A DNA stretch of 64,000 bases from Patescibacteria group bacterium (lineage in GTDB: Bacteria; Patescibacteriota; Dojkabacteria; GCA-002793355): the NCBI GenBank assembly GCA_016860985.1, contig BOKM01000001.1, forward strand, positions 463,462-527,461, given 5' to 3'. The position numbers and the translations under genes were made by a program. Of this stretch, positions 20,763-52,789 are shown one piece after another (the first letter of the stretch is position 1; every line of letters starts with the position of its first letter). Under the pieces are notes generated by a model. That model saw only the letters and a program-made list of their open reading frames with translations. It searched no databases and was not told the DNA's origin.

Positions 20763-21545
20763 ATGCGCCTTGCGATTATTGCACCAAATGCATATCTGCA
20801 GGATTTTTCAGCTTTTCATAACAACTCATACCATCTTGTTCTTGCACATCGATTCAACTCCGAGCCCGAATACCGTAGTTTTTACATTGAGCAAAGAAAG
20901 AAGACTCACAGTTTTATAATTCTTGATAACGGAGCTTGCGAACTCGGAGAGTCGATTAACAATGGCACACTACTAGAAACTGCCAGTGTCCTTCGTCCTG
21001 ACGTACTTGTTCTTCCCGACGTCTTGCATCAAAGTCAAGCAACAATTGCCAGAACAGAGAAATTCATTGAGTCCTATAAACACCAGAACAAAATAAAGTG
21101 CAAATTGATGGCAGTTGTACAGGGCAAAACAAGAAAGGAGTGGCTCTCAACATTATCTTCCTTTACCTCTAATCCATATATCGATATGATTGGGATTTCG
21201 AGTACAAACGCCGTATACCCGAAGACAAAAAACTACTATACCAGAATCAAAACACTTAGGTATTTGCATCAAAGACAACTTATAGGGAAGAAAAAAATTC
21301 ATATGCTCGGGTTAGATGACTCTGGACACTTCGAATTACGTCATTTCTCAAAATATTCCTTCATCGAAGGAGCAGATTCTAGCGCTCCAGTAGTTCATGG
21401 AGCAAAAGGGATAAAAATTTACAAGAACAAGCGTTACGAAAAGATTCGAACGTATCTACCAAGCGATGCAATCCTCACGAAGGAGCAGGTATTAGCAGTA
21501 AAAGCTAATCTGCAAGTATTTTTTGACATGGCTTCACATGAATAG
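20763..21545 (+). CDS. short TGT-fold guanine transglycosylase-like protein (DpdA-like), lacking the C-terminal zinc subdomain
   Basis: Matches to tRNA-guanine transglycosylase landmarks: LMAVVQGKT (LFGIVQGG), IHMLGLD (YLMGVG) and FIILDNG (LTDSGGFQ). Only 260 aa and no CxCxxC..H zinc site. Confidence 0.5.
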   Translation: MRLAIIAPNAYLQDFSAFHNNSYHLVLAHRFNSEPEYRSFYIEQRKKTHSFIILDNGACELGESINNGTLLETASVLRPDVLVLPDVLHQSQATIARTEKFIESYKHQNKIKCKLMAVVQGKTRKEWLSTLSSFTSNPYIDMIGISSTNAVYPKTKNYYTRIKTLRYLHQRQLIGKKKIHMLGLDDSGHFELRHFSKYSFIEGADSSAPVVHGAKGIKIYKNKRYEKIRTYLPSDAILTKEQVLAVKANLQVFFDMASHE

Positions 21546-23292
21546 AAAAATATTTGTATCGGGCGAAGGTGCTCGAGGAGCAGGAAAAACCTCTACGTTA
21601 AATGTTCTACTGCAAGAATCTACGACTCCCACTGCTGTTAACAGGGTAGCCCCAAACATACCTACAGAGCACCTTCTTCTGATTGACACTCATAAAGCGA
21701 CAAGCCCGTTTCACAAGAGAGCGCTCGAAATACATAAACAGTGGGAAGAAGCCGTCAAAACCCCAGGTGAAGGTGCAGAGCGATTATCATGGAAAAAGTT
21801 TGAGCTCGGAATACTACAGCTACGGTATGAATCCGACAGCTATCACGACGCAACTAGCAAAGCGGAGCAAATTTTTCTCGATAGAGATATTGATACAGCT
21901 GTCGTATACTCTGCAGCAGAGATTATTTTATCCAATCCTCACAAATACGATTCGGTACGTTCGCATATTGCGCTACTACACAATCTATGGCAGAAAGTAT
22001 ATTCAGTATGCCAGACAAACGACTGGGACGTGAGCACTTTTCCACACCTTGATACCGAAGATGATGTCTTATCATTAGTTGATTTTTTAAAACAACAACC
22101 CTTAAGGGATATACCCACTAATACCTTTTACTTCTTTACAAAAGATAAGACTGAATCACTAAAAAGGAGCCACACTTTACGTATAGACACTGCACTCGAA
22201 TACAATCTCACCGTAGTACAGCAAGCAACACAAGATATTATCCAACCATTGTACCTCTATTCCTTTCTCATCCGAAAACAATTATTCCCTGAGGCGCAAG
22301 TTCATTATCTCTCTTCAGATGCGCACAACATCAAAGAGCTCGCGAATTTGGTAAAACTACATGTTAATACGACGACGCTTGAGGTTCCAGGCGCAGACCA
22401 TATCCCCGTTAAGCTACGAATACCTTTTAACAAAGACCACTCCCTACCCTCATCCATTGAGACGCTTAGCCAAGTAATATTCGAAAGCACTGTTGGATCA
22501 ACCTTCCCAAGCAAACGAGAAGTACACATTAATGGAGAATCAAATTGTGTTTACAACAATAAGGCACTGTACGAATACGCATCATTACTAGGACTTGGCC
22601 ACATTGAATTCGTCCAAATTCAACGAGAGACATTCTCTGAAACTTGTCCTGTCCACTGGGCGTGTATTGAGTGGCTTACTCCCCAAAGAGATACTGCACG
22701 AATAATTGATCTGACACCTTTTAGAATTAAGCCCTACATTTCCCAACCTTGTAAAGTTACACACAATGGGGATACATACCAACTGACCTCGCTCACACAA
22801 CAGCCTATTGAATTTACTCAAGTAAAGAAAGAAACGTCATTAATTCCAGAAAGAGCCATGGAATTCGCCTATAACGTTGAATATACTTTCCAGGAAGAAT
22901 CGTTACAAGCATTAACACGTGAGGGATATGAATTGTTAGGCCAATCAAACAACGAATCGCAGAATATATTTTTAACTATTAGGTTAGGAAGATTGTTGCA
23001 GAAACAGGAACGCATCCAAGAGGCAGTCGAATTGCTTGAGCGAGCAGTGACCACTTTCCCGCAAAATCTTATACTTGCCAGGGAAGTTGCAAAGTATGTC
23101 ATTGATGGGTACATTAAATTCGTACCACCGTATTTTTATACTTACCTCAGTAACGCAAACCAGATTCTTGAACGAACTACCCAAACAATGCGAGAACATG
23201 ATATTGATGAAACTGAAATCAATGCGTATTATGAGTATAGGAAATTTATTCCACATGCACTTAAGTTAATCACCGAAGAACATGAAAGTTGA
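21538..23292 (+). CDS. hypothetical P-loop NTPase with a long alpha-helical (TPR-like) C-terminal region
   Basis: Walker A GARGAGKTS near the N-terminus. The ORF-track start is TTG, and the first ATG is at 21538. No further family assignment. Confidence 0.45.
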   Translation: MNRKIFVSGEGARGAGKTSTLNVLLQESTTPTAVNRVAPNIPTEHLLLIDTHKATSPFHKRALEIHKQWEEAVKTPGEGAERLSWKKFELGILQLRYESDSYHDATSKAEQIFLDRDIDTAVVYSAAEIILSNPHKYDSVRSHIALLHNLWQKVYSVCQTNDWDVSTFPHLDTEDDVLSLVDFLKQQPLRDIPTNTFYFFTKDKTESLKRSHTLRIDTALEYNLTVVQQATQDIIQPLYLYSFLIRKQLFPEAQVHYLSSDAHNIKELANLVKLHVNTTTLEVPGADHIPVKLRIPFNKDHSLPSSIETLSQVIFESTVGSTFPSKREVHINGESNCVYNNKALYEYASLLGLGHIEFVQIQRETFSETCPVHWACIEWLTPQRDTARIIDLTPFRIKPYISQPCKVTHNGDTYQLTSLTQQPIEFTQVKKETSLIPERAMEFAYNVEYTFQEESLQALTREGYELLGQSNNESQNIFLTIRLGRLLQKQERIQEAVELLERAVTTFPQNLILAREVAKYVIDGYIKFVPPYFYTYLSNANQILERTTQTMREHDIDETEINAYYEYRKFIPHALKLITEEHES

Positions 23293-34438: not shown

Positions 34439-35812
34439 TTACCCAGCCTTCTTTGGCCTTCGAGCAACATTTACATATCGCGCTCCAACAAAAGCGAATA
34501 CTCCAATAGCATACAGCGTACCCCCAATGTATAGCAGCACATCGTCAGCAAAACCGGTTTCACTTGGAGTGTGAGTAACAGAAGGAGTTCTTGTGCCAGT
34601 TGTTGTTGGAGGTACCGTAGTTGTTGGAGGAGGGGGGAAGTTGCATGTGTAACTAGTATTGGTACAATCGTCACTTGTGTACTGACACCCAGAAGGAAGT
34701 GGAACCCTTGTACACTGAGGAGTTATCGAAGGGGTTGTTGTTCCAGTACTTGAGACTGTTGGCGTTGAGGTTGGAGTTGGGGAACCGGTGTTTGTTGGTG
34801 TCGGTGTCCTCGATGTTGTCGGAGTAGGAGTTCTTGTTGCCGTTGGACTTGGAGTACGTGTCGCTGTTGGTGAGGGAGTTCGAGTTGCTGTCGGAGTAGG
34901 AGTTCTTGTTGCGGTGGGGGTAGGGGTAACAGTATTTGTTGTTGCATCACAGTAAAAACTGCCACTCGTGCCCTTAACAACTGCTCCAGGAGCACAACAA
35001 TCTTTGATAACATCTGTAGAGGAAGCATTCAAACATTTTCTCCCAATGGCGTTAGCAACCCACTCATTTCTACAATCAAGTCCCGTCCCAAAATTTGCAC
35101 AAGAGGTATTTGAGCAAGTGTTTTTTGGATGCGAACCATAATCATTGCAATACGCCTTTGTTGGGGTTGGGACTGGGGTTGTTGGACCAATGATCACACA
35201 TGCGGTTCCGGCGCTGTTAATCACCTGCCCTGAGGGGCAACAATCAAATATTTGATCATATGTCGACCTACTTACACATTTTACATTCGATGCTCCTGAT
35301 AAAGATTTCGATGCACAATAACGGCCACTTGGGCACGTTGCATTTGTACATGAATTTTTGGCGTGATTTCCATAGCTACTGCAATACCCAGAACTTGGTG
35401 TAGGGGTGGGGGTAGGAGTTCGAGTTGGTGTTGGCGTAGCAGTTGGTGTTGTACCGGGGCAAACTCCAGAAGCAGATGGTGCTCCGTTGCGACAGCAGTC
35501 GACTATCTGATCCTGTTCTCCTATTATTCTACATTTTGTTACATACCCAGTCCCACTCAATGCACGTGATGCACATTTGTTCCCAAGATTTCCCGTTCCA
35601 AGTGCTGTAGTACACGATGTGTTATTACATGTACCTGAAGAATATGTTCCATAATTATTACAAAAGCCCGCCGCTTCCGAACCTGGCTCCCACAATTTTC
35701 TTCCTGGATCGGAAAGTAAAAAACCTGTCACGCCCAATACAATTAACCCAGCGATTGCAAAAATGATAGTTGGCAACTGTTTCATCCGATTCTTGGAGGC
35801 AAGTTTTTTCAT
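34439..35812 (-). CDS. cysteine-rich repeat surface protein (three or four copies of a novel Cys-rich module of about 75 aa separated by Thr/Pro linkers, C-terminal transmembrane anchor)
   Basis: Repeated pattern CNNYG..S..C.N.SC....G....KC.......DCC..G found three times, plus a partial fourth. Also TPTPTATRTP linkers, an N-terminal signal sequence and a C-terminal hydrophobic anchor. Confidence 0.5.
   Translation of the reverse strand: MKKLASKNRMKQLPTIIFAIAGLIVLGVTGFLLSDPGRKLWEPGSEAAGFCNNYGTYSSGTCNNTSCTTALGTGNLGNKCASRALSGTGYVTKCRIIGEQDQIVDCCRNGAPSASGVCPGTTPTATPTPTRTPTPTPTPSSGYCSSYGNHAKNSCTNATCPSGRYCASKSLSGASNVKCVSRSTYDQIFDCCPSGQVINSAGTACVIIGPTTPVPTPTKAYCNDYGSHPKNTCSNTSCANFGTGLDCRNEWVANAIGRKCLNASSTDVIKDCCAPGAVVKGTSGSFYCDATTNTVTPTPTATRTPTPTATRTPSPTATRTPSPTATRTPTPTTSRTPTPTNTGSPTPTSTPTVSSTGTTTPSITPQCTRVPLPSGCQYTSDDCTNTSYTCNFPPPPTTTVPPTTTGTRTPSVTHTPSETGFADDVLLYIGGTLYAIGVFAFVGARYVNVARRPKKAG
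34790..34930. repeat. imperfect tandem nucleotide repeats encoding the TATRTP(S/T)P linker
   Basis: Recurring units such as tcggagtaggagttcttgttgc at roughly 34820 and 34891, and cgagttgctgtcgg-type units, seen directly in the sequence. Confidence 0.5.
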
Positions 35813-37097: not shown

Positions 37098-38060
37098 ATG
37101 TTAACAGTTGGTAACCTCCTCAAAAAAGCTAGAGAGCACTCAGGCAAGCACATTGAAGAGATTGCACAGATTATAAAAATCAAACCCGAGTATCTTAATA
37201 AGATTGAACAGAACGACTTTTCTTCGTTTAACTCGTCAACTTTTGTAAAAGGTTTCATCAGAAGTTACGCCGCCTTTCTTGGACTTGATGCAGAGAATAT
37301 CGTGGCACTGTTTCGCAGGCAAATTGGGGAAGAAGATGTTCCTTTAAAAGCAAAAAAAACGCTAATAAAGCAGCAAAGCATCGTTATTTCTCCGACTTCA
37401 ATTATGTCGGTTGCAATTATTTTATTCTTTGTTGCAGTATTTGGATTTTTAATCAGTCAATTCTATCGATTACAACAGCCACCAGTATTAAAAATAGTAC
37501 AGCCAAGCACAGAGATCACAACATCTGACTCACCAAACTTTGAAATTAAAGGTCTCACAGAAGAAAACACTATAGTTACGGTAAATGAAACGCAACTACA
37601 ACTTCGCGAAGATAATACTTTTTCACTCGCCGTAGAATTAAAAGAAGGTGACAATACGTTTACATTCAATGCGTGGAAGAAAAATATTGAAGGCAAGCAT
37701 GCGACGCAAATTGTTACCATTCTCTATAATCCAAGGGGTAATTCATCCCCATCAGTTACACCAACTGAAGGAGCATCGACAAGTAATAACAATGGACAGG
37801 ACCTTCAAGTAGAGTTTACGCTTAGTGACCAAGCTTGGATTCAAATCGTAAGCGACGATACACAAAAGGCTGTTGGCGTAAAAAACAAAGGATATGTTCT
37901 GAACTTTACCGCAAAAAAGATGATTGAAATAACGACAGGAAAGCCAGCAGTATCTGCAATCAAACTAAACGGAAAACCAACCTCCTGGAGACTAAAGAAT
38001 GGCGTTGGCTCGCTTGTTTGCGCGTACAGTACAGAAATCAACGACTGGAAGTGTAATTAA
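37098..38060 (+). CDS. rodZ: RodZ-like membrane protein (N-terminal XRE-type HTH, one transmembrane helix, C-terminal DUF4115-like domain)
   Basis: HTH (LLKKAREHSGKHIEEIAQIIKIKPEYLNKIEQ), FVKGFIRSYA motif typical of RodZ, and a transmembrane segment near 100 aa. Confidence 0.55.
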   Translation: MLTVGNLLKKAREHSGKHIEEIAQIIKIKPEYLNKIEQNDFSSFNSSTFVKGFIRSYAAFLGLDAENIVALFRRQIGEEDVPLKAKKTLIKQQSIVISPTSIMSVAIILFFVAVFGFLISQFYRLQQPPVLKIVQPSTEITTSDSPNFEIKGLTEENTIVTVNETQLQLREDNTFSLAVELKEGDNTFTFNAWKKNIEGKHATQIVTILYNPRGNSSPSVTPTEGASTSNNNGQDLQVEFTLSDQAWIQIVSDDTQKAVGVKNKGYVLNFTAKKMIEITTGKPAVSAIKLNGKPTSWRLKNGVGSLVCAYSTEINDWKCN

Positions 38061-38066
38061 CCAACG

Positions 38067-39866
38067 CTATACTGCAAAGTTTCCAACTTCTGCCTCTGTT
38101 ACTTCTGCAAGATCTTCTCCTTTCATGGTAATTGAACATGTCTGCATACCTGCGTTAAACGACACCTGTTCGAGTTGCGCAATAGCGCTATCCATGTACA
38201 CTTTCATGCCCAAAAGATTGCCAAAAGGAGGGACTCCCCCAACTTTAATACCATAGGTCGCGAGAATGTTCTCTGGCTTCTCAAACTCTGCTTTTTCTCC
38301 AATGGCGGCAGTTACTGCTTCAAAGGATATTTTTTTATCGCCTGGAATAACTACCATAACCGGAGTATTGGTCTTTTTTCCAGAAAGAATAAGCGCCTTT
38401 GCTCCATTAGAGAGAGATGTTCCTCGAAGCGCTGCGGCCTCTTCACTTGTTCGCACAGCTTCGTGTTCAGAAAATTCGTATGCAACTGCACGGCTATCAA
38501 GTATTTTTTTAATTTTTGCCACAACTTCCTTATCAGAACCAAGCTTTTCCTTGATTCTATTTGCACCTGCGATTCTCTTGAGATCAGAAGGGAATAAGGT
38601 TGCCTCTCGGATATTTTGCAAGTTGAACAACTTCATGGTTAATCGCTCAAGTCCAAAAGAAAATCCTGCCTCTGAAGGCATTCCGTATTTAAAGGCTTGG
38701 AAATAGTGCTCGTAATACGCTTCAGACAAGCCTTGCTCTTTAAATCTTTCGAAAAGCTTTTCGTATTCGTGGATACGATGGGTACCTGAAAGCATTTCAA
38801 GACCTCTAAACTCAAGGTCAAAGCTAAGAGATTCCGAAGCTTCTTCTGGGTTATCCCATGTATAAAAGTTTTTGTTGCTTTTAAAGTTTACAACCCACAG
38901 AAAATCTGAACCTTTTTCCTCTAATGCCCACTTGCTAATCTCACGCTCGTCTTCCGGATCGAGGTCTAACTCCTCTCGTTCTGCTGACTTTCCGATTCTT
39001 CTTTCTATAATCTCCAAAGCTTCTCGAACTTTTATTTTCGGAAATCGACCATTTGGTAATTTGGGAAGCTCAACCCCATACAAGGCGAACACATCTTTTG
39101 AGGTCTCCACTACACCATCAACAATATGTCGAATAACATTTTCAGCAATCTGCATGGCCTCGTCGTAATTATCAATAAAGCCCATCTCCGCATCCATTTG
39201 CGTGAGTTCCATTATGTGGCGGGTAGTATTATGCTTCTCTGCTCGAAAAACGGGACCGACACAGAAAGCGCGTTCAAAGGCTGTAACCATAATTTGCTTA
39301 TAAACCTGTGGCGACTGCGCCAAATATGCTTTTCCTTCAAAGTAGTTCACTTCAAAAACACTTGCACCACTTTCAGACGGAGCACTCATAATTACCGGTG
39401 ACTTAAATTCGGTAAAACCTTGAGAGCGTAGAGATTCCGCAAACTTTTGTAAAATAACCGCTTGTACTTTAAAAATTGCTTGTTTTTTAAGATTTCTTAG
39501 CACCAAAGGTCTGTAATCCAACTCTGTGTCGATATTGACATCAATTGATTTTTTGTTGTACGAAACCGGTGGAACTTCCTTAATTGGGACCTTTATTTCG
39601 ACCGTAGGGTTAACTACTTCAACACCAATATCTGTTGAGTCAGTTTTTTTTACCGTTCCCACAACACGAACAACACTTCCGGGTTGCAACGACGCTAATT
39701 CTTTTAACGTATCTTTATTATCAACAACTACCTGAACTAAGCCACCTCGATCACGAACAATCAAGAAACCGAGTTTGCCTAACTCACGAAAGTTATGAAG
39801 CCACCCATCAAGGCGTACTTCTTTGCTCTCATATCCAGAGAGCTCTGTTGAAATAATACGTTCCAT
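38067..39866 (-). CDS. class IIb aspartyl/asparaginyl-tRNA synthetase fused to a C-terminal YbaK/ProX-like aminoacyl-tRNA deacylase domain
   Basis: OB anticodon-binding domain, QSPQVYKQ, FRAE (motif 2), and GFSFGLERLTM plus IREATLFPSD (motif 3). The C-terminal 140 aa match YbaK closely (YEFSEHE; GIKVGGVPPFG vs GYLVGGISPLG). Confidence 0.8.
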   Translation of the reverse strand: MERIISTELSGYESKEVRLDGWLHNFRELGKLGFLIVRDRGGLVQVVVDNKDTLKELASLQPGSVVRVVGTVKKTDSTDIGVEVVNPTVEIKVPIKEVPPVSYNKKSIDVNIDTELDYRPLVLRNLKKQAIFKVQAVILQKFAESLRSQGFTEFKSPVIMSAPSESGASVFEVNYFEGKAYLAQSPQVYKQIMVTAFERAFCVGPVFRAEKHNTTRHIMELTQMDAEMGFIDNYDEAMQIAENVIRHIVDGVVETSKDVFALYGVELPKLPNGRFPKIKVREALEIIERRIGKSAEREELDLDPEDEREISKWALEEKGSDFLWVVNFKSNKNFYTWDNPEEASESLSFDLEFRGLEMLSGTHRIHEYEKLFERFKEQGLSEAYYEHYFQAFKYGMPSEAGFSFGLERLTMKLFNLQNIREATLFPSDLKRIAGANRIKEKLGSDKEVVAKIKKILDSRAVAYEFSEHEAVRTSEEAAALRGTSLSNGAKALILSGKKTNTPVMVVIPGDKKISFEAVTAAIGEKAEFEKPENILATYGIKVGGVPPFGNLLGMKVYMDSAIAQLEQVSFNAGMQTCSITMKGEDLAEVTEAEVGNFAV

Positions 39867-40057
39867 GGGGAATTATAACGCAACACAATCGAGAATGAAA
39901 TAAACGTTGACCTGCCCACTGCCGCACGAAGTCGTATAATACGAGTATGGTTTATCATTCAGCAACAAAAGAGAATTGCGAACTCGTACTCCCTCCCTTA
40001 TCACTTAACTAAAAACCTTTTCAGTTGAATCAGCCAAAATTCGGTGCAAAATATAGT

Positions 40058-50852: not shown

Positions 50853-52655
50853 CTAGATTCCTTTTAACTCATCGACGGTTGTTGCCTGTTCCGCCTTCTT
50901 TTCCCTGAATTTTTTAAACCTTGGAAAGCGAAGTGCATAACCTGAAGAATGAAGGGGGCTTTTGGTTATTTCGTCTGCTTCGACTTCTACTACAAGCGAG
51001 GGCAATAAATAAACATCTGGAGTGAGCGACTTAGGAATAACTACATTATCCAGTTTTCTATCGGTCTTTACCTCGTCACAGGCTGCTTTAATGATTTTCC
51101 ATTGCTCGTGTGTAACCCCCGTGCCTATTTTTGTTACGGTTAGGTACTCATCTGTCTCTCGGTTATAAACAGCAGCAAGCAGTGCACCGATACCAAATTG
51201 GGCGAGTTTTCCTTCTCCGCGATAATAACCTACCAAAACGATATCAACCGTATCTGCGAGTTCTTTTTTCATCGCTTTTTTATATTTTAACCAATCAAAG
51301 TTACGCGTTCCTGGAGTATAAATAGATGACGTATCCTTAAAAATGACTCCCTCTAAACCCTCTGCCACATATTCAAGGAAAAGTTTTTCCGCCTCAGCAA
51401 CATCTTTTGGATAATGAATTGGAGTTTTAACAATTGTACGTTGAACCTCCTGATTTTCGTCGAGAAAAGTTAAGAGTTCTTTTCGAACTGAAAGTGATTT
51501 GTCCATCAAATTTTCATTATTTACCAAAAGAATATCAAAAGAGAAGACTTTAACAGGAACTTCGTTTGCTGCACCTTCTACCCCGTGTTTCCGCTTGCGA
51601 GTCATTGTTTGTTGGAAAGGAAGATACTCCTGAACGATATCATTGTAACCGATGACTTCACCATCGAGCACAATGGATTCAACAGAGACACCGTGCTTTT
51701 TTTCATACTGCAGTGGAAGCTTCTTTGCTGCTTCTACGACTTCGGGGAACATTTCGGTCATATTTTCGAGATTGCGGGAAAAAAGCATAACTGAGTAATC
51801 CTCTTTTTCATTCTGTTCTGGTTGAGAAAAAAGGCTAAGATTCGCTTCTTTTGACTTATCTTCGTGTGAAAAGTATGGTTGCCAAACTCTTTCTGCATAG
51901 ACGTTTTCAAGAACCTTTTCTTTGAATACGTGGAGTTGTATTCGCAAACCGTCATATTTTGGCTCTTCAATTGGCTCTGGAATTCTTTTGTAGATAGACT
52001 CGATTGAATCTTCACGTTCAACCAGCTTTGCTGAGACAGGAATTCCTGGTGAAAATACTGATCGTTCCGGGGCTGCTTCGCCATACTTTAGAGAGAGATA
52101 CACTGTATGCCCAATATCTGAACAATTCGCAAACAGCTTTTTTAGCTCGTCATTTTTTGTCCCCTGTAATGCGCCGAGTGCCTCAAGTATGGTTCTTTCG
52201 CTTGCTCCAAGCCGAAGTTTGCTGTTCACAATTCGCAGTGTATACTTGCCCGCTAGAGGTGAGCATCTTTTTAGCAGATTAATTAGTAATTCTTGTTTCT
52301 TTGCCTGTGAGCCTGTCCCTTTGGTTTTTGCAACATCCCACAAGAGAGAGTAGTAGTCGAGTAGGGTAAGGTCAGTCTCTTGTTTTGGTGCGTAGGCCTC
52401 CCATACTGAACCGATATCACCATATGTGGTTAAATCTTGCACAACATCTTTACCCAAGAGTGTTTCGACAACAGTTCGCAACGTTTTATCAGACAATTGA
52501 AACTCAACCGCAATAAATTCAGGGACAATTCTTCCTATTATCAAATATGCCGTAATTGCACCTTCTTCAGGGGTTGCCTGACGGAAATAATCAGTTAAAA
52601 GGGCCTGCATTTCGAGTCTTTTTGGTGTTTTCTCAATTGCCGAAAATAATTCCAT
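50853..52655 (-). CDS. ATP-dependent DNA ligase
   Basis: Adenylation motif I EPKYDGLR and an OB-fold domain. Start set at the internal MELFS. Confidence 0.8.
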   Translation of the reverse strand: MELFSAIEKTPKRLEMQALLTDYFRQATPEEGAITAYLIIGRIVPEFIAVEFQLSDKTLRTVVETLLGKDVVQDLTTYGDIGSVWEAYAPKQETDLTLLDYYSLLWDVAKTKGTGSQAKKQELLINLLKRCSPLAGKYTLRIVNSKLRLGASERTILEALGALQGTKNDELKKLFANCSDIGHTVYLSLKYGEAAPERSVFSPGIPVSAKLVEREDSIESIYKRIPEPIEEPKYDGLRIQLHVFKEKVLENVYAERVWQPYFSHEDKSKEANLSLFSQPEQNEKEDYSVMLFSRNLENMTEMFPEVVEAAKKLPLQYEKKHGVSVESIVLDGEVIGYNDIVQEYLPFQQTMTRKRKHGVEGAANEVPVKVFSFDILLVNNENLMDKSLSVRKELLTFLDENQEVQRTIVKTPIHYPKDVAEAEKLFLEYVAEGLEGVIFKDTSSIYTPGTRNFDWLKYKKAMKKELADTVDIVLVGYYRGEGKLAQFGIGALLAAVYNRETDEYLTVTKIGTGVTHEQWKIIKAACDEVKTDRKLDNVVIPKSLTPDVYLLPSLVVEVEADEITKSPLHSSGYALRFPRFKKFREKKAEQATTVDELKGI

Positions 52656-52789
52656 TACTGTTGTCAGTTGCATACAGGATTGTACCACTAGCAGCCGAAA
52701 TTGCCGTAGTATTTTACTTACACACTGCCACGTTATATAATTACTCAGTACGCATTGACCCAGCAATCACTGGTGAGCGTCAGGAAGAA

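Follow-up and report, generated by a model that had tools for sequence, protein, structure and literature searches.

A predicted YeaK/ProXp-ST1-like editing domain joined in frame to aspartyl-tRNA synthetase in a Dojkabacteria-like bacterium

Editing has been described for 10 of 23 aminoacyl-tRNA synthetases (PMC7373986). The known fusions of INS-family domains to synthetases involve prolyl-tRNA synthetase (ProRS) only: ProXp-ala stands N-terminal to ProRS in Plasmodium, Trypanosoma and other protists, and the INS domain is inserted into the bacterial enzyme. ProRS-fused ProXp-ala is attached by a flexible linker and is thought to edit mainly after release of the product (PMC11286415, PMC11295145). 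According to a 2024 review, the members of the superfamily apart from INS itself are single-domain proteins, with ProXp-7, -8 and -9 uncharacterised (PMC11295145). In this study we describe a gene, aspS, from a Patescibacteria group bacterium (contig BOKM01000001.1, positions 463,462 to 527,461; this stretch of 64,000 nucleotides is called the window here), in which an aspartyl-tRNA synthetase (AspRS) is followed in the same reading frame by a predicted editing domain. Like the ProRS systems, it combines an INS-superfamily deacylase with a class II synthetase. However, mischarging with Ala and Cys is well established for the ProRS systems and their editing domain is N-terminal or inserted, whereas in the present protein AspRS is the partner and the editing domain, which is from another subfamily, lies at the C-terminus.

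We give a probability of about 0.5 to the reading that this gene encodes the AspRS of a Dojkabacteria-like bacterium of the Candidate Phyla Radiation (CPR) with a catalytically competent, permanently attached C-terminal deacylase of the YeaK/ProXp-ST1 type that would be dedicated to AspRS. The closest described deacylase is ProXp-ST1, E. coli YeaK, which has the same PF04073 fold family as the window domain and with it a catalytic Lys in a GAKAL motif, a GXXXP loop and an FNAG motif. However, YeaK is a single-domain protein that acts in trans on many tRNAs, whereas the window domain and its nearest relatives are joined or translationally coupled to AspRS and form a separate clade with motifs of its own, TSE(E/D) and GEKxEFEKPE. 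The ProXp-ST1 family is described as free-standing and single-domain, and the window domain is fused in frame to AspRS. The Cys-tRNAPro deacylase YbaK and ProXp-x (T. thermophilus TTHA1699, 2cx5) belong to the same superfamily and use the same Lys and GXXXP loop but are clearly more distant. On the synthetase side the likeness is to archaeal-type non-discriminating AspRS (T. thermophilus AspRS2, 1n9w; transamidosome 3kfu) and extends over the whole synthetase core. The solved enzymes of this type stop just past motif 3 (~420-440 aa) without a C-terminal domain, whereas the window protein has one. Hence the AspRS and editing parts are both known, and the combination is conserved and not described in the literature searched. 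The sequence-only reading knew of no report of such a fusion, and we likewise found no description of an AspRS with an INS-type domain in the full-text literature that can be searched without subscription. Public databases already contain these proteins, with precomputed Pfam domains but under plain AspRS names such as 'aspartate--tRNA(Asn) ligase'.

The two halves of the fused protein

The gene lies on the minus strand at 38067..39866 and is one uninterrupted open reading frame of 599 amino acids (599 codons plus stop). We looked for a frameshift or a stop codon between the two domains and found neither; the in-frame junction reads PSDLKRIAGANRIKEKLGS, in the context ...FPSDLKRIAGANRIKEKLGS... 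An AlphaFold2 model built with 37 homologues has a mean predicted local distance difference test score (pLDDT) of 86.6 and is confident in both halves, with a dip to ~63-73 in the linker between them. This linker is flexible; it is poorly conserved across 37 aligned fusion proteins, and the natural split forms described below break exactly at its position. Comparison with solved structures by sequence and by Foldseek gave none that spans both the AspRS and the editing part, and Foldseek with the whole model matched only AspRS/AsnRS chains, the editing domain obtaining no separate structural class. The features, with the evidence for each, are as follows.

38067..39866, minus strand: whole gene, aspS with editing domain (open reading frame list of the window; three-domain Pfam architecture; full-length homologues)
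39597..39818, minus strand: OB-fold anticodon-binding domain, residues 17-90 (PF01336, E 1.2e-14; beta-barrel in the AlphaFold model, pLDDT >90)
38586..39533, minus strand: class IIb (class II D/K/N) catalytic core, residues 112-427 (PF00152, E 9.8e-76), with QSPQ at 184-187, motif 2 FRAE at 207-210 and motif 3 GLER at 405-408
38535..38570, minus strand: variable linker, residues ~433-444, AGANRIKEKLGS, 3' of the conserved FPSDLKRI (alignment, pLDDT, split sites)
38070..38534, minus strand: YeaK/ProXp-ST1-like editing domain (predicted), residues 445-599 (PF04073; YeaK match; pLDDT 88-92)
38397..38399, minus strand: codon of Lys490 (translates to K; at the position of the catalytic Lys in the INS superfamily)
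38226..38240, minus strand: GXXXP loop, G543-G-V-P-P547 (translates to GGVPP)

A complete N-terminal class IIb synthetase of the Asp/Asn type had been proposed for this locus from the sequence alone, and Pfam bears this out with the OB fold and the D/K/N core, complete within residues 1-432. The motifs quoted then (QSPQVYKQ, FRAE, GLERLTM, FPSD, YEFSEHE and GGVPPFG) are all present. The choice left there between AspRS and AsnRS can be narrowed, as residues 1-432 are predicted to be a complete AspRS of the archaeal, 'non-discriminating' type. The equivalog model NF003483 (aspartate--tRNA(Asn) ligase) gives 463.9 bits with a cut-off of 353, and TIGR00458 barely exceeds its cut-off (370.6 against 368.4 bits), whereas the AsnRS models of NCBIfam reach 238 and 218 bits and stay under their cut-offs of 414 and 343. 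Sub-cut-off NCBIfam scores rule out an AsnRS or LysRS identity of the N-terminal part, and the bacterial-AspRS model is also below its cut-off. The top solved relatives of residues 3-432 are T. thermophilus AspRS2 (1n9w/3kfu, E 4e-91) and the T. kodakarensis enzyme (3nel), and Foldseek superimposes the model on T. thermophilus AspRS2 (1n9w; 3kfu) with template modelling scores of 0.92-0.93 on the target. The QSPQ motif, motif 2 FRAE with its R-H loop and motif 3 GLER are invariant in the 37 fusions and align with 1n9w and 3nel.

Whether this AspRS would charge tRNA(Asn) in addition to tRNA(Asp) bears on what the editing domain might do. We take the signature of non-discriminating enzymes to be a His at the position of W26 in T. 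kodakarensis AspRS together with a Pro in the L1 loop (position of K85). The window protein has His24 at the first position, and 47 of 60 fused proteins have a His there, but the L1 loop has Asp or Glu and lacks the Pro that is typical of many non-discriminating enzymes and is found in many unfused CPR AspRS. His24 fits the signature and the loop Pro is absent, a mixed pattern with which this AspRS may or may not charge tRNA(Asn). In related genomes gatCAB lies a few kb from aspS, both unfused (L007) and fused (L010), and those lineages therefore have the transamidation machinery. A general adjacency of gatCAB and aspS was considered and ruled out, as it was seen in L007, L008 and L010 only.

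With this background the domain could be thought of as a safety valve of the indirect asparagine route, hydrolysing the obligatory mis-acylated intermediate Asp-tRNA(Asn) whenever it has escaped GatCAB and thus keeping Asp out of Asn codons where AsnRS is missing. Such a role would fit an AspRS that scores as aspartate--tRNA(Asn) ligase, whose best solved relative is a transamidosome subunit (T. thermophilus AspRS2) and some of whose fused and unfused relatives have GatCAB beside them; chlamydiae, in which the fusion is also found, rely on a non-discriminating AspRS with GatCAB. However, it would set up a futile cycle on the enzyme's own product, and the domain would have to distinguish tRNA(Asn) from tRNA(Asp). 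The characterised pockets of the INS family accept small neutral residues (Ala, Cys, Ser, Thr, Abu) and not an acidic side chain, and of the signature for the non-discriminating status that the idea presupposes, His24 is in place and the loop Pro absent. We therefore consider it quite improbable.

The C-terminal domain matches PF04073 (tRNA_edit) over residues 468-588, covering profile positions 1-122 of 123 with an E-value of 2.7e-26 and 92.5 bits against a gathering score of 25.5. The characterised INS families in our comparison were YeaK, YbaK, ProXp-x and Cc ProXp-ala, ProXp-ST2 lying outside it. E. coli YeaK aligns end to end at 27% identity with 69.7 bits, whereas YbaK reaches 34.3 bits in pairwise comparison. 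A hidden Markov model of the fused clade scores YeaK at 75.7 bits and the uncharacterised 3op6 at 73.1, followed by 1wdv (56.0), ProXp-x (2cx5, 54.0) and YbaK (52.2). Among the compared relatives, the motifs GAKAL and FNAG are common only to the fused clade, YeaK and 3op6; YbaK and ProXp-x have GGG or SGG where the fused clade has FNAG. The YbaK equivalog TIGR00011 gives 68 bits with a cut-off of 153.25, PRK10670 gives 20.6 against 243, and Cc ProXp-ala (5vxb) is a weak match (E 0.15). Since YeaK is the best match, the model scores and the shared motifs agree with it and the YbaK equivalog falls short of its cut-off, the domain is predicted to be YeaK/ProXp-ST1-like rather than YbaK-like. The YbaK-like domain proposed from the sequence alone thus holds at the level of the superfamily (PF04073), whereas for YbaK/ProX proper YeaK/ProXp-ST1 has to be substituted as the nearer family. 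Membership of YbaK proper, ProXp-x or ProXp-ala was rejected, as all of them match more weakly than YeaK.

A conserved Lys and the GXXXP loop are the catalytic hallmarks of the INS superfamily (PMC11286415), and their presence had been left as a question by the sequence-only reading. Both are there: K490 aligns with K46 of E. coli YbaK and with the Lys of YeaK, 3op6, 1wdv and 2cx5, and the GGVPP loop of the window protein (G543-P547) aligns with GGISP of YbaK. In the 37 fusions, down to 43% identity, the editing-domain residues H468, K490, E529, G543, P547, G549 and F570 are invariant, and the pocket-lining H468, F570, N571 and G573 do not vary across lineages that are less than 45% identical. 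With both hallmarks kept, the domain is most likely, as predicted from its residues, an active deacylase. This invariance of the catalytic Lys, the GXXXP loop and other pocket positions argues against a non-catalytic role, in which the old editing fold would serve for the docking of proteins or as an additional binding domain for the tRNA acceptor arm, for instance when tRNA is handed over to GatCAB or EF-Tu. We hold such a role to be highly improbable, even though appended INS-family domains can boost tRNA binding (C-terminal domain of plant ProXp-ala, N-terminal domain of T. brucei MCP3; PMC11295145, PMC11286415) and diverged motifs, VGEVPPFG and FTIAD, occur in some fused members (P0050, P0053).

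An editing-domain clade coupled to AspRS

The same three Pfam domains are found in dozens of ~600-aa proteins of a large protein collection, 43-92% identical and from independent assemblies, their sources being Candidatus Dojkabacteria or Doudnabacteria. For a census we took the GTDB representative genome of each species, scanned these genomes with the editing-domain alignment and used tblastn to classify the 80 loci returned. The fusion had been proposed as something to look for in related genomes, and 71 of these 80 species-representative loci have the domain joined in frame to an AspRS core. The fused loci come from Dojkabacteria, Doudnabacteria and Chlamydiota, at least 30 of them bearing Chlamydiota record titles. 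When a Rhabdochlamydia protein was used as query, all of its 120 best homologues were three-domain fusions with at least 73% identity. Because dozens of independent assemblies share the protein and 71 of the 80 loci are fused in frame, chimerism and chance are excluded; an assembly chimera or a frameshift is likewise ruled out by the single open frame together with the same fusion in more than 70 independent genomes.

A neighbour-joining tree of the editing domains places all 60 of 60 fused domains in one clade, outside of which stand ~115 free-standing CPR homologues and E. coli YeaK, the latter placed among the free-standing sister group. The chlamydial fusions (30 loci) belong to the same clade and have a conserved linker, AGNRIKA.IFFGGENIRN. 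The domain is found on three AspRS scaffolds. The archaeal-type scaffold is represented by the window protein and by Rhabdochlamydia L050, the bacterial-type AspRS without GAD insertion and with a C-terminal editing domain by L021 and L087 (NF001750, 560-573 bits), and the bacterial-type AspRS with GAD and a C-terminal tRNA_edit domain by P0244 and P0283 (744-748 aa). The C-terminal domains of these last four proteins are 39-47% identical to that of the window protein; the one of the four that was placed in the tree, L087, falls inside the AspRS-associated clade. As an observation on the synthetase itself, L021:2588-4468 and L087:2543-4444 encode a bacterial-type AspRS lacking the GAD insertion that is usual in bacterial AspRS.

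Split forms were found as well. In L009 an unfused aspS ends ...FPSDLKRIAGAKRMK* and is followed, after a 29-nt spacer, by a separate editing gene (163 aa) whose product is 47% identical to the window domain. In L011 the editing gene starts with an ATG that overlaps the stop codon of aspS (ATGAATAA), as is typical of translational coupling; in the tree this editing gene falls among the free-standing homologues. A 138-aa tRNA_edit gene 8 kb from an unfused aspS (L003:1522-1938), with a GGVKP loop, was rejected as a further split form, as it is 26% identical and groups with ProXp-x (2cx5) and 1wdv. We also ran phmmer exhaustively against 1.84 billion representative proteins and listed the best 150 matches. 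Among the long proteins checked within these best 150, AspRS was the only synthetase found as a partner; the sole other partner among them was a DD-carboxypeptidase. The coupling of this editing-domain clade to AspRS is specific, the two being fused or the editing gene being the next one in the operon.

The AspRS-core tree has a different shape, with fused and unfused proteins interleaving. The association has therefore arisen, disappeared or been transferred repeatedly, and throughout this the editing domains have stayed one family. A single fusion event within Dojkabacteria was considered and is ruled out by the interleaved core tree, the Chlamydiota fusions and the fusions to bacterial-type AspRS.

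These results also bear on the idea that the domain is a generic trans-editing factor that happens to be tethered, clearing Ser- and Thr-mischarged tRNAs produced by AlaRS, ThrRS, LysRS, ValRS and IleRS, with AspRS providing co-expression, stability or localisation. YeaK is the closest characterised relative, and ProXp-ST1 is broad in its tRNA specificity (PMC11295145). Free-standing homologues with 38-50% identity are common in other CPR bacteria, where they do not adjoin aspS, and the split gene of L011 sits in the free-standing group of the tree. However, these domains pair with AspRS repeatedly and exclusively, which speaks against a generic deacylase: AspRS is the partner in every case, on three scaffolds of independent origin and in operonic split forms, no other synthetase fusion was seen among the proteins checked, and the AspRS-associated domains form their own clade with the GEKxEFEKPE motif. 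On balance we think it unlikely that the domain works as such a general factor.

The carboxypeptidase partner is found in two proteins, P0317 (486 aa) and P0368 (505 aa), in which a close relative of the editing domain stands N-terminal to a Peptidase_S11 D-Ala-D-Ala carboxypeptidase; this partner is unexpected and provides a link to D-amino-acid metabolism. Transfer of D-Asp by AspRS has been reported, and DTD disposes of D-Asp-tRNA(Asp). The fused domain might thus be a filter for chirality or for analogues, ridding tRNA(Asp) of D-Asp or of analogues of Asp, beta-hydroxy-aspartate for instance, and replacing or complementing DTD in host-dependent bacteria. Besides the carboxypeptidase fusions, this idea can draw on the recognition of beta-hydroxy amino acids by the YeaK family, a relative of which, FthB, acts on fluorothreonine (PMC11295145). 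However, selection by chirality is not known for any member of the INS family; we regard the idea as very unlikely.

Possible editing at AspRS

How the fused protein could work may be sketched as follows. Its N-terminal part would attach Asp to tRNA(Asp) and probably to tRNA(Asn) as well, GatCAB amidating the latter afterwards. While the synthetase still holds the aminoacylated tRNA, or once it has quickly bound it again, the tethered editing pocket would sample the 3' end. Editing might hence take place before release or by rapid re-capture, as proposed for ProRS-fused ProXp-ala (PMC11286415). A wrong amino acid would be removed in the pocket by hydrolysis of the ester, whereas correct Asp would be kept out of it. 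By analogy to ProXp-ST1, the rejected amino acid could be small and polar, Ser- or Thr-like, or an Asp analogue (PMC11295145). We infer that the deacylase acts on tRNAs handled by AspRS. Of the roles put forward from the sequence alone, proofreading linked to AspRS is favoured, whereas a moonlighting deacylase of one reduced genome is not, because the fusion is widespread in CPR bacteria and Chlamydiota and occurs on three scaffolds.

Several points weigh against a deacylase dedicated to AspRS. Many CPR AspRS are without the domain, which is thus dispensable in close relatives. AspRS is generally taken neither to need nor to have editing, and to our knowledge it is not among the synthetases known to need it, so that there is no obvious mischarged product to remove. 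The Ser/Thr specificity of YeaK cannot be transferred to the fused domain, since identity is just 27%. Finally, class II synthetases release their product fast, and 'cis' editing may in fact be re-capture in trans (PMC11286415).

If the domain is indeed dedicated to AspRS, a wider proposal might be made, which we offer tentatively and rate at somewhat below even odds. AspRS in CPR/Patescibacteria and in environmental Chlamydiota, both host-dependent and unrelated to each other, may have dedicated post-transfer editing, carried out by an unrecognised AspRS-specific branch of the INS superfamily. It would be the first such activity for class IIb Asp/Asn synthetases and might police a mis-activated Asp look-alike or Asp-tRNA(Asn). 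Editing domains mark the error-prone points of the genetic code, and AspRS has been regarded as accurate enough without one. An intact deacylase on three AspRS scaffolds in two phyla, and as an operon partner, suggests that fidelity at Asp/Asn codons, or along the transamidation route, poses a problem that has gone unrecognised. It would add an AspRS-linked branch to the INS superfamily, with a possible bearing on translation in chlamydiae and CPR symbionts.

Genomic neighbourhood and further homologues

As a piece of CPR chromosome the window is ordinary, with genes for Mur ligases, UvrABC, a class I synthetase of the I/L/M/V type, a synthetase of the W/Y type, FtsK, MurJ and an ATP-dependent DNA ligase. 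No tRNA genes, GatCAB, AsnRS or ProRS were found within it. In this segment aspS stands alone, flanked on one side by a RodZ-like gene that is convergent with it and on the other by a NUDIX gene that is divergent. The RodZ-like gene (37098-38060, plus strand) converges on aspS (minus strand) with 6 nt between the stop codons (38060-38067), and no terminator-like hairpin was found between the two. Upstream of aspS, at 39867-39890, a TATAAT-like hexamer (gttataatt) ends ~5 nt before the ATG; there is no obvious Shine-Dalgarno sequence in this interval, and a scan for consensus promoters made no call on the aspS strand. From these few nucleotides the aspS transcript may be leaderless or very short-leadered. 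Elsewhere in the window, 50853-52766 (minus strand) encodes the DNA ligase, of the archaeal/eukaryotic type and with all three domains, on a bacterial chromosome segment, and two large open reading frames, 21523-23292 (plus strand, 589 aa) and 34439-35812 (minus strand, 457 aa), have no Pfam match at E <= 1e-5.

In one 659-kb contig (CAZGEO010000001.1, L017/L018) the whole fused aspS lies in an exact repeat of at least 4.5 kb, with two copies 5,079 bp apart, the repeat being due either to a tandem duplication of very recent date or to an artefact of the assembly. A free-standing YeaK-like homologue with 37% identity was found in Candidatus Nanoanaerosalina halalkaliphila (L086), a metagenome-assembled genome which we take to be that of a DPANN archaeon and so outside the bacterial groups that dominate the YeaK-like family. 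Among the homologous proteins, P0247 (448 aa) has three copies of tRNA_edit, confirmed by Pfam, P0362 (491 aa) has three stretches that match the editing domain, and P0331 (3719 aa) has 23 such stretches.

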